DNA of 40,347 bases, the filler included, from Mycoplasmatota bacterium (GTDB lineage Bacteria; Bacillota_I; Bacilli_A; RF39; UBA660), in NCBI GenBank assembly GCA_012727915.1. It is 4 parts of 4 records of this genome, joined end to end, with 100 filler letters (N's around TTAATTAATTAA, not from the genome) between each part and the next. Parts side by side here need not be neighbours in the genome. Positions count along the whole stretch, not along the records: positions 20,960 to 40,347 come from JAAYGD010000020.1; 3 more parts are not named here. One strand, 5' to 3'. How positions within the stretch are numbered: the stretch's first letter is position 1; every line of letters starts with the position of its first letter. Positions 36,001-38,667 of the stretch are shown here, piece by piece. The position numbers were made by a program.

Positions 36001-38667
36001 TTTTTTAAATTTTTTTTGACAAAAAATATGTATGATTATTGTAAACTATCAGAAAATGCTTATGAGGTTTTAGAATATTTAAATGAAAAATATGATCTTT
36101 TTATTGGTACATCGTATATATTTAAAGAAATTCCGAAAGAATCTGGTAAAATATTATTAGATAAATTTAATTATTTGCAAGATAAATTACCTTTTATTAG
36201 TCCATATAAATATATATTTTTAGGAGATAAATCTGTATTGGATTTTGAAGTAAAAATAGATGATAAAGAAGAAAATCTGGAAGGAGCAGAAAAAAAAATA
36301 TTGTTTACAGCATATCACAATAAAAATATATCAGATGAAGAATTAAAAACAAAAGCTATAGAAAGAGCTTTAAATTGGTTAGATGTTAAAAAATTATTAT
36401 AAAAATAGGAGGTTTTGAAATGAAAATAGACATATTACCAAATTATTATTTAGAAAAAGATGGAAGATTTAACAAAGAAAAAGCATTAAATTTATGTGGT
36501 AAAATTGCTGGTGTTTGTTATGATAAAGAAGGATATAAACATTTAGAAAACGAACCAATAGAAAAAACTAATAAGAGAATAGATATGACTTTAAATAATG
36601 GGCATCATAGTGTATATGATCATATAAATATTAGTTTAAATTTGCAAAACATACCTAAAATTTTAGCAATGGTTTTAAATAATGAACATCAATACACTAC
36701 TAGTGAAAAATCAGCAAGATATACCCCGGTTGTAAAAGAAGAAGGTTCAATAATAACTGAATTAGAAGAGAATTTATATAATAAATGGCTTGAAATATTT
36801 AAAGCAAAAATTAAAGATCAATATGGATATATTTATAATGATTCAAAAATACAAAAATTAGCGCAAGAAAATGCTAGGTATCTAGTAACAGTTTTTATGC
36901 CAACACAAATGATTTATACAACTTCATTTAGGCAAATTAACTATTTAGCATCTTGGATGGATAAATATACTTATAAAACTAATAATAATGATTTTGGAAA
37001 AAAATTGGGAAAAAATATGGAAGATTTTTATTTTGAATTACTTAGATTAAACATACTTGAATCAGGCTTAATGTTTAATGAAAAAGATAGAAACATTTCT
37101 TTATTTGGTAAAGAATTAAATAAAAAGGAAGAGATATTTAGTGATATATATCAAACTACTTATAAAGGTTCTTTTGCTCAATTGGCTCAAGCACAAAGAC
37201 ATAGAACATTAGATTATAAAATTGAACTATTAGATGAAAAAGAATATTTTGTACCACCAATAATAAAAGATGATGAACAATTAGTAGAAGAGTGGTTAAA
37301 TGATATGAATAAAGTAAAGGACTTTTATCCACAAGGAGAATTAGTATATATTAATGAAATAGGGAAATATGATGATTTCATATTAAAATGTAAAGAAAGA
37401 TTATGTTCAAGTGCTCAATTAGAAATTATGCAGCAAACAAAAGCTACATTAGTAAAATATAAAGATTCTTTAGAAAAAAGTAATAATCCTTTAAAAGATA
37501 ATATTAAATTATATTCTAAAGGGGCAAGATGTACTTTTCCAGACTATACTTGTTCAAATGATTGTAATTTTAAAGAAGGAAAATTATTATCAAGAAAAAT
37601 ATAACTGATTATTAATCAGTTATTTTTATGTTATACTATTTAAGGAGTTTATTATGAAATTAGATGATTTTAATTATGAGTTAGATGAAAGTTTTATTGC
37701 GCAATCTCCATTAATAAATAGAGATGAATCTAAATTATTAGTGCTTAATAAAGATGATGGTTCAATTGAACATAAAACTTTTAAAAATATTATTGATTAT
37801 CTTAATAAAGATGATATTTTAGTCTTAAATGATACTAAGGTATTACCTGCAAGATTGATTGGAGAAAAAGAAAATACAAAGGCTATAATAGAAATATTAT
37901 TATTAAAAAATATTGAAAATGATATTTGGGAATGTTTAGTTAAACCAGCTAAGAGAATAAAAGTTGGAACTATAGTTAATTTTTCAAACTTGTTAAAAGC
38001 TAAATGTATAGAAATTCAAGATGAAGGTATAAGAATATTTGAATTAATTTATGAAGGTATTTTTTATGAAATATTAGATAAATTGGGAACAATGCCTCTT
38101 CCTCCATATATTCATAAAAAATTAGAAGACAAAGATAGATATCAAACTATATACGCAAAAAATATTGGAAGTTCTGCTGCTCCTACAGCGGGGTTACATT
38201 TTACTGATGATTTAATAAAGAAAATTAAAGCAAAAGGAATAATTATATGTTTTATAACATTACACGTTGGAATTGGAACATTTAGACCTGTTTCTGTAGA
38301 CAATATTGAAAATCATAAAATGCATAGTGAGTTTTATTCATTAGACAAAGATACTGCTAATATTTTAAATAATAAAAAGGGTAGAATAATTAGTGTTGGA
38401 ACAACAACAACTAGAACTTTAGAAACAATATTAAAAAATAATAATAAATTTATAGAGTGTTCTGGATGGACAGACATATTTATTTATCCGGGTTATAAGT
38501 TTAAAGCAATAGATGCATTAATAACTAACTTTCATTTACCTAAATCTACTTTATTAATGCTAGTTTCTGCTTTTTCATCTAAAGATTTTATATTAGAAGC
38601 CTATGAAGAAGCCAAAAGGAATAAGTATAGATTTTTTTCTTTTGGGGATGCAATGTTTATAAAATAG

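Follow-up and report, generated by a model that had tools for sequence, protein, structure and literature searches.

Introduction

Canonical flavin-dependent thymidylate synthase (ThyX), represented by the T. maritima enzyme TM0449 (1KQ4, 1O26) and by that of M. tuberculosis (2AF6, 3GWC), is a homotetramer. According to the accessible text of a review (PMC6514825), each active site is built by three subunits: in M. tuberculosis numbering, subunit A contributes the RHR motif (residues 95-97) and R199, subunit B contributes S71 and R190, and subunit C contributes R87, Q103, S105, R107, and Y108. Domain-duplicated ThyX was noted as an uncharacterised form, present in Chloroflexi and in a small number of further species, in the part of PMC3224940 that was available, and a literature search outside subscription journals and supplements returned nothing on tandem ThyX beyond that report among the papers listed. 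PMC5954106, PMC9931769, and PMC10733785, when searched by term, likewise yielded no mention of it. The ThyX fold is also found in PolB, a UMP/dUMP C5 methylase (4P5A).

Here, we describe a compact tandem ThyX of 394 residues from an uncultured bacterium (G000; 873 kb in 76 contigs, 25% GC, rated 93.8% complete). The gene is located on contig C76, and the window, the whole stretch of 40,347 nucleotides that was analysed, consists of several contigs joined. The protein is very probably a methylene-THF-dependent dUMP-to-dTMP synthase. With a duplicated ThyX already in print, the compact tandem form is a variant and not a new kind of enzyme. The features of the locus are collected in Table 1.

Table 1. 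Features of the compact tandem thyX locus, in positions of the window
Feature	Position	Strand	Evidence
Slot ruvA-ruvB-[NT5C, tandem thyX]-queA-tgt	34284..39801	+	ORF lists
NT5C deoxypyrimidine 5'-nucleotidase-like gene, probably co-transcribed	35854..36402	+	Pfam NT5C, E 1.5e-13
Tandem (two-domain) ThyX gene, 394 aa	36420..37604	+	ORF, Pfam Thy1, AlphaFold model, dN/dS
N-terminal ThyX domain, residues 1 to ~228	36420..37103	+	Profile-aligned with the M. tuberculosis and H. pylori enzymes; hhalign prob 98.5
H62-x-S64-x-x-D67-H68, matching the ThyX G-H-x-S-x-x-E-H motif	36603..36623	+	H62 99%, S64 91%, H68 98% (n=125); alignment
N87-N88-E89-H90 at the canonical RHR place, degenerate	36678..36689	+	Conservation, profile alignment, tree members
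S95-E96-K97-S98-A99-R100-Y101, catalytic Ser/Arg/Tyr loop	36702..36722	+	S95, E96, S98, R100, Y101 each 95-99%; alignment
C-terminal ThyX domain, residues 231-394, shortened	37110..37601	+	Foldseek, VIA-align, hhalign
Q257-x-x-R260-H261-R262, FAD/dUMP-binding RHR, in the second domain where a ThyX domain normally has it	37188..37205	+	Pfam, conservation, hhalign
K323-x-x-E326-R327-x-C329-x-x-A332-Q333-x-E335, matching the ThyX C-terminal R....AQ.E motif	37386..37424	+	K323, E326, R327, C329, A332, Q333, E335 each 94-99%; hhalign against single-domain ThyX
C371-x6-C378-x3-C382, with C329 a putative four-Cys metal site	37530..37565	+	95-100% conserved

Two ThyX domains in one chain

The protein matched Pfam Thy1 (PF02511) in two stretches with 67.6 bits, above the cut-off of 24.8, and is thus a member of Thy1. 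With the NCBIfam thyX equivalog model (TIGR02170), it reached 39.9 bits against a cut-off of 87.9, so that compact tandem ThyX can be missed in metabolic models. The full-length AlphaFold model (130 aligned sequences) had a pLDDT of 96.9 and a pTM of 0.93, and residues 231-394, modelled alone, had a pLDDT of 97.4. The genome-wide survey's note had described this C-terminal half as a region of unknown fold, and it was found instead to be a second ThyX domain. A Foldseek search with the C-half model gave 130 matches at E<=1e-3, and every one among the matches listed was a ThyX, the best being 1kq4 (prob 1.00, TMq 0.59, rmsd 3.3). VIA-align returned 47 ThyX/PolB entries with Z 12.8-8.9, followed by the next fold at Z 3.5; the superposition on 2af6 (Z 12.8) covered 133 residues with an rmsd of 2.3 A. 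The C-half alone was aligned around its RHR to positions 67-124 of the Pfam Thy1 model, a match (E 0.0059) that falls short of the cut-off. In hhalign comparisons with two single-domain ThyX proteins of the same order, the N-half was matched with prob 98.5 and the C-half with prob 93.8 (E 1.8e-7). A direct comparison of the N-half and C-half profiles gave prob 0.4, similar to that of a reversed control (0.25), and the duplication was therefore shown through third-party ThyX proteins instead. Both halves match solved ThyX structures, and the note's description of a fused, pseudo-dimeric ThyX is supported; the chain consists of two ThyX domains that carry complementary motifs.

Partition of the active-site residues

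Conservation was read from an alignment of the query with 124 of the best 150 representatives, restricted to lengths of 360-450 aa (n=125). As had been claimed, the profile alignment of the N-half placed N-N-E opposite the R-H-R of ThyX, with S-E-x-S-x-R-Y retained, and a conserved RHR was found in the second half (R260-H261-R262, 96-98%). The N-N-E-H sequence itself, previously called invariant, did not keep that status: N87 was conserved at 98%, N88 at 69%, and E89 at 58%, and H90 was outside the three commonest residues at its position. This earlier impression, like that of five invariant cysteines (see below), arose because the previous alignment was shallow.

No single domain contains a contiguous RHR-x7-8-S-x-R-Y motif, the RHR being located at residues 260-262 and the S-x-R-Y at residues 98-101, in different domains. 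Nevertheless, every M. tuberculosis active-site residue named in the accessible text of PMC6514825 has a counterpart, and these counterparts are sorted by donor subunit. The subunit A set (R260-H261-R262 and R327) is found in the C-domain, while the B set (S64, R171) and the C set (K80, E96, S98, R100, Y101) are found in the N-domain. The N-domain as a whole retains H62, S64, K80, E96, S98, R100, Y101, E150, R153, and R171, and its RHR is replaced. Its S95-Y101 loop corresponds to S105/R107/Y108 of M. tuberculosis ThyX, as these residues are given in the available portions of PMC8316439 and PMC6514825. Lysine 80 replaces the arginine of M. tuberculosis R87, R171 gives way to I, A, or Y in 6 of the 22 members used for a tree, and R327 aligns with the conserved dUMP-activating arginine (the R199/R174 equivalent). 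H62 aligns with the histidine of the M. tuberculosis ThyX motif, and its counterpart in T. maritima is presumably H53, which we take to be the folate-stacking histidine. The note had named an ordinary ThyX whose second half supplies the RHR as a case that would refute it, and the complementary partition of the motifs agrees with that case.

Predicted dimer and proposed mechanism

The homodimer model scored 0.90, compared with 0.05 for the best of three controls; among proteins of solved structure, 20 of 30 pairs and 1 of 23 single chains attained the mark for a homodimer. The homodimer runs shared at least 95% of their contacts, with a partner pLDDT of at least 89. Residues 64-68 contacted residues 93-95 of the partner, which is what the split between the B and C sets requires, although the homodimer model as a whole possibly reproduces solved ThyX tetramers.

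We propose that the protein arose by internal duplication, with two ThyX subunits joined in one chain, and that two chains would rebuild the four-domain core of ThyX. Each working site would consist of the RHR (260-262) and R327 from one C-domain, H62, S64, and R171 from one N-domain, and K80, E96, S98, R100, Y101, and R153 from the other N-domain. Of the four sites, two would remain functional and the other two would degenerate, and this degeneration would account for the N-N-E-H of the N-half as well as for the loss of the SxRY and HxS motifs from the C-half. From the symmetry of the tetramer, we infer that each dimer has two sites with the full residue set and two that are empty. The enzyme is expected to bind FAD and to be catalytically active as a dimer with these two sites, the predicted flavin-dependent reaction being dUMP + 5,10-methylene-THF + NAD(P)H -> dTMP + THF. 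The placement of the RHR and Ser/Arg/Tyr roles in different domains would allow a direct test of half-site and inter-subunit questions.

Relation to other ThyX forms and the four-cysteine tail

Each half of the compact form has the same fold as canonical ThyX, and the compact form shares with it the full FAD and dUMP residue set, the exchange with ThyA, and the lack of DHFR in the three family genomes tested. In contrast to canonical ThyX, it has two domains per chain, split motifs, a predicted dimer in which two sites would form and not four, a shortened second domain, and a four-cysteine tail.

Long tandem ThyX proteins (476-512 aa) of the same order have two Thy1 domains, and all five that were read showed the same partition: H-x-S and S-x-R are retained in the N-half, which has no RHR, and the RHR, R-x-C-x-x-AQ, and the cysteine tail are found in the C-half. 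The compact form is about 80-120 aa shorter, mostly because its second domain has lost the beginning, and is about 22-23% identical to the long forms. For the ThyX of Chlamydia trachomatis, a protein of ~530 aa that is likewise duplicated, methylene-THF-dependent activity has reportedly been measured. The single-domain ThyX proteins L022 and L023 (260-262 aa), which come from the same order, share the four-cysteine pattern and the adjacency to tmk with the compact form, but hold both the RHR and SQRY in one domain.

Five cysteines had been reported as invariant. Four of them (C329, C371, C378, and C382) were indeed conserved at 95-100%, whereas C324 was conserved at only 50% (n=125). The same four-cysteine pattern was present in two of two single-domain and five of five long tandem ThyX proteins of the order. 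Judging from this sequence pattern, the four cysteines probably bind a metal, either Zn or Fe-S, and this structural metal was probably inherited from a local single-domain ThyX. A literature search for a ThyX metal site, conducted outside subscription journals, found nothing among the papers listed, and the site appears to be unstudied.

Family size, conservation, and exchange with ThyA

The 4404 homologs counted previously at E<=1e-3 were recovered in the same number, and the family comprises 333 clusters at 50% identity and E<=1e-30. The protein had also been described as very highly conserved; however, the 70-73% identity on which this was based applies to the top of the homolog list only, and values of 34-37% were reached among the best 150 representatives. 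In the ESM Atlas, only Thy1-labelled Bacillota clusters came back. No homolog was matched in a plasmid collection, and a search for longer fused forms (691-2000 aa) at E<=1e-3 found none, which is weak evidence. The gene is 80% identical to that of a close relative, comparable with queA (78%), and its dN/dS in this one pair is 0.19, against 0.16 for NT5C and 0.15 for queA. The tandem ThyX gene is under purifying selection.

The survey of the family's distribution drew on 151 genomes from the order, each with a completeness of at least 90%. Family genomes, defined by a full-length family gene at E<1e-80, numbered 34; another 19 with weaker matches only, mostly other ThyX types and one broken copy (G001), were left out. 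The compact tandem ThyX is thus found in about a fifth of the sampled genomes, and also in large phages. A ThyA match was present in 71 of the 151 genomes, distributed as 0 of 34 family genomes versus 71 of 117 others. DHFR was sought in three family genomes and found in none, as is expected for ThyX. The family therefore follows the phylogenetic pattern of ThyX, standing in for ThyA without a requirement for DHFR. The tandem ThyX behaves as a ThyX in every comparative test, despite the absence of a contiguous motif and the low TIGR02170 score.

The exchange is also visible at the locus itself. The slot genes are called ruvA, ruvB, queA, and tgt here, names that we presume from their sequences. 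In the genus mate G082, thyA-folA (identified by Pfam) lies between the same ruvB and queA, the flanks being 92% and 78% identical; in the present genome the swapped slot is occupied by NT5C and tandem thyX together. The upstream NT5C gene described in the note was confirmed by Pfam, and of 25 distinct bacterial family loci, 6 have an NT5C-like gene immediately upstream (Pfam-checked in two of the six). The tmk gene adjoins tandem thyX in 10 of these 25 loci (Pfam-checked in two of the ten). In G095, the order is folD-glyA-[tandem thyX]-tmk-queA, and in G103, of the same genus, it is folD-glyA-[478-aa tandem ThyX]-tmk; glyA adjoins the tandem gene in three family genomes (G095, G122, and G062). 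Tandem ThyX thus exchanges with ThyA and with other ThyX types.

The missing source of methylene-THF

The reported absence of SHMT and FolD was reproduced, as neither was found in G000 or in the two genus mates searched (G040 and G082). In G000, the FolD C-domain model gave no match, and local order-level FolD and SHMT HMMs, searched against all six-frame ORFs, gave best E values of 0.12 and 0.16. The genome encodes Fhs, Fmt, MnmG, thymidine kinase, and Tmk, and searches of it for DHFR, GcvT, MetF, 5-formyl-THF cyclo-ligase, FolT, and dNK found none of these. G000 handles folate, yet it is without a known route to the methylene level. As a property of the family, the note's phrase that these genomes cannot make methylene-THF was only half right: 16 of the 34 family genomes were found to lack both SHMT and FolD, but 17 of the 34 have SHMT.

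The gap is not confined to the family. SHMT and FolD were both missing from 64 of the 151 genomes, 44 of which keep a thymidylate synthase. By type, the gap was found in 6 of 15 long-tandem genomes, 4 of 9 genomes with another Thy1, and 20 of 71 ThyA genomes, the last including divergent TS-like genes (G121, G086) and in-match stops (G138). In ThyA proteins from such gap genomes, the catalytic cysteine was kept in all nine that were read. The gap was somewhat more frequent in family genomes (16 of 34) than in genomes with another thymidylate synthase (28 of 91), with a Fisher p of 0.097, in which related genomes do not count independently. Since the gap is common to ThyA and other ThyX genomes, it extends across the lineage and is no indication that tandem ThyX uses a special donor. 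In the tree of 22 members, SHMT-positive and SHMT/FolD-negative genes were interleaved, with 6 changes against a shuffled mean of 7.2 (139 of 500 label shuffles were as low as observed), and no alignment column among these 22 separated the two groups. Tandem ThyX is thus neither restricted to gap genomes nor grouped there in a clade of its own, as a folate-independent synthase would be.

In a search for one-carbon routes in five genomes (G000, G035, G093, G042, and G066), GcvT, MetF, 5-formyl-THF cyclo-ligase, and the FolD C-domain were found in 0 of 5 each. The FolT model also matched 0 of 5, but it is a narrow model for which no control scored above the cut-off. The threonine-aldolase-type family gave weak matches only, to frames of ~400 aa in three of the five, and the genes around fhs included no candidate C1 source. 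MnmG was present in all five. G042, which is 98% complete in five contigs, has an intact thyA-folA together with Fmt and MnmG, and SHMT, FolD, Fhs, GcvT, MetF, 5-formyl-THF cyclo-ligase, thymidine kinase, dNK, and FolT were not found in it. Thymidine kinase was also missing from 5 of the 16 family and 8 of the 20 ThyA gap genomes. Among 20 genomes without a thymidylate synthase, SHMT, or FolD, 11 also lacked thymidine kinase, which suggests, from drafts only, that another dTMP supply may exist or that parts of the assemblies are missing.

The accessible text of PMC7073904 states that, in E. coli without methylene-THF enzymes, the reaction by which formaldehyde condenses spontaneously with THF allows slow growth, and only at high formaldehyde. 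The portion of an older survey that was available (PMC1971073) lists ThyA but no GlyA for Mycoplasma synoviae. Literature on folate and thymidylate in RF39, presumably the order of these genomes, was not found in a search outside subscription journals and supplements. One possibility, which we regard as real but somewhat doubtful, is that this order of bacteria with small genomes reaches 5,10-methylene-THF by a route not yet recognised, either an unknown substitute for SHMT/FolD or the uptake of formaldehyde or C1-loaded folates. Such a route would feed tandem ThyX, ThyA, and MnmG alike. There are dozens of near-complete genomes with thymidylate synthases and Fmt for which no methylene-THF source is known. 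This lineage-wide gap points to a missing one-carbon step in abundant uncultured bacteria, and is more surprising than the gene itself.

Alternative functions

The note had favoured a one-carbon donor other than methylene-THF. In that case, tandem ThyX would be a dTMP synthase tuned to free formaldehyde on the flavin, or to a carrier at the four-cysteine site. The gap genomes of the family, including those that also lack thymidine kinase, lend this idea some weight, and T. maritima ThyX can methylate dUMP with formaldehyde alone in vitro; the same accessible text, however, gives a formaldehyde KD of ~20 mM and a kon of 1.1 per M per s (PMC8316439). Most of the comparative evidence runs the other way. 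SHMT is present in half of the family genomes and is encoded next to the tandem gene in three, the SHMT label is interleaved on the tree with no separating column, the cysteine site is shared with ordinary ThyX, and H62 is almost fully conserved. In addition, the same gap occurs in ThyA genomes, and in SHMT/FolD-less G082 the same slot is filled by ThyA-DHFR, which requires methylene-THF. We therefore consider a non-folate donor very unlikely.

A further explanation is that an ordinary tandem ThyX lies largely idle in SHMT/FolD-less genomes, which would live on salvaged thymidine or nucleotides and carry the gene as a recent relic or passenger. The presence of thymidine kinase and Tmk in G000 would permit salvage, but the dN/dS of the gene in the single pair resembles that of its neighbours, a thymidylate synthase is retained in most genomes without SHMT and FolD, and most members encoded in such genomes have their core residues in place. 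The exceptions are G137, with S95A and Y101F, and G085, in which the frame stops before the last three cysteines. This explanation is also very improbable, and a working, methylene-THF-dependent tandem ThyX remains the preferred reading.

That the ThyX fold serves another nucleotide, whether UMP, as it does in PolB, or a modified base of phages, is scarcely credible: the structural matches include PolB (Z 9.8), and 17 viral contigs, several of them >200 kb, carry homologs, but the dUMP-binding set is complete, ThyA is excluded from family genomes, the gene clusters with tmk and exchanges its slot with thyA-folA, the loci read have no secondary-metabolite context, and the scanned phage neighbours gave no Pfam match to base-modification enzymes. 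That phage scan covered 53 neighbours of 137 ORFs, and dCTP deaminase-like genes were found in two of the loci.

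Exchange among thymidylate synthase types

At least four types of thymidylate synthase occur in the order: ThyA, a single ThyX (260-262 aa), a long tandem ThyX (476-512 aa), and the compact tandem ThyX, the two-domain, 394-aa protein of the window. Within genera of the order, and at the same chromosomal slot, these types substitute for one another. Large phages carry the compact tandem family as well (viral contigs L051-L067, up to 268 kb), with a dCTP deaminase-like gene nearby in two loci, and may transfer it from host to host.

Thymidylate synthases in genomes where SHMT and FolD were not found

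Among the 151 genomes of the order, thymidylate synthases were found to be retained without SHMT or FolD, for example in G042, G027, G058, and G066 (table). No source of methylene-THF or formyl-THF was found among the enzymes searched in such genomes. Fmt and MnmG were present in all five genomes tested for one-carbon genes, GcvT and MetF were found in none of the five, and searches of G042 for Fhs, thymidine kinase, and dNK were also negative. In the genome of the window, a DUF362 protein with 4Fe-4S domains (L033:5192-6280, contig C64) lies three genes away from fhs, a position that need not mean a link to folate.

In 11 genomes, among them G002 (10 contigs, 98% complete), searches for ThyA, ThyX, SHMT, FolD, and thymidine kinase gave no match. 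This pattern suggests that nucleotides are taken up, that a different kinase or a phosphotransferase does the work, or that the assemblies have gaps.

Related and divergent proteins

Features of related genomes and of the window
Feature	Location	Remark
Thymidylate synthase region, G042	L034:4830-6169	SHMT, FolD, GcvT, MetF not found
Further examples	L049 (G027); L041 (G058); L035 (G066)	
Single-domain ThyX of the order	L022:2436-3221; L023:2434-3213	C-terminal four-Cys motif
Partial Thy1 matches	G008:C1:80222-80710; G128:C11:35597-36073	Model positions 57-186
Divergent thymidylate-synthase-like protein, G121	L044:3892-5286	465 aa; PterinBD-DUF4346 fusion
Divergent compact tandem ThyX, G085	L025:32-1219	Frame stops before last three Cys
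Type II/IV secretion ATPase, prepilin-type N-methyl protein, two glycine-rich/Ig-like surface proteins	Window 23605-29222	

The motif ending the ordinary single-domain ThyX looks like a metal site from its sequence; among the papers listed by a literature search, none dealt with such a site in ThyX. The frames bearing partial Thy1 matches (307-336 aa) possibly encode another ThyX-derived protein; the genomes concerned have ThyA or the compact tandem family besides. Weak ThyA matches like that of the G121 protein were observed in G086 and G047; SHMT and FolD were not found in G121 or G086, and FolD is present in G047.

The G085 tail may be frameshifted, since a short second match containing a stop follows the early end of the frame. 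Two records titled uncultured Muribaculaceae (L002 and L003) hold a compact tandem ThyX gene within Bacilli-like surroundings, L003 having the gene order of the window (ruvB-NT5C-thyX-queA) and 80% identity; these titles may be mistaken. Judged by sequence, the secretion and surface-protein genes of the window form a predicted pilus-like cluster.
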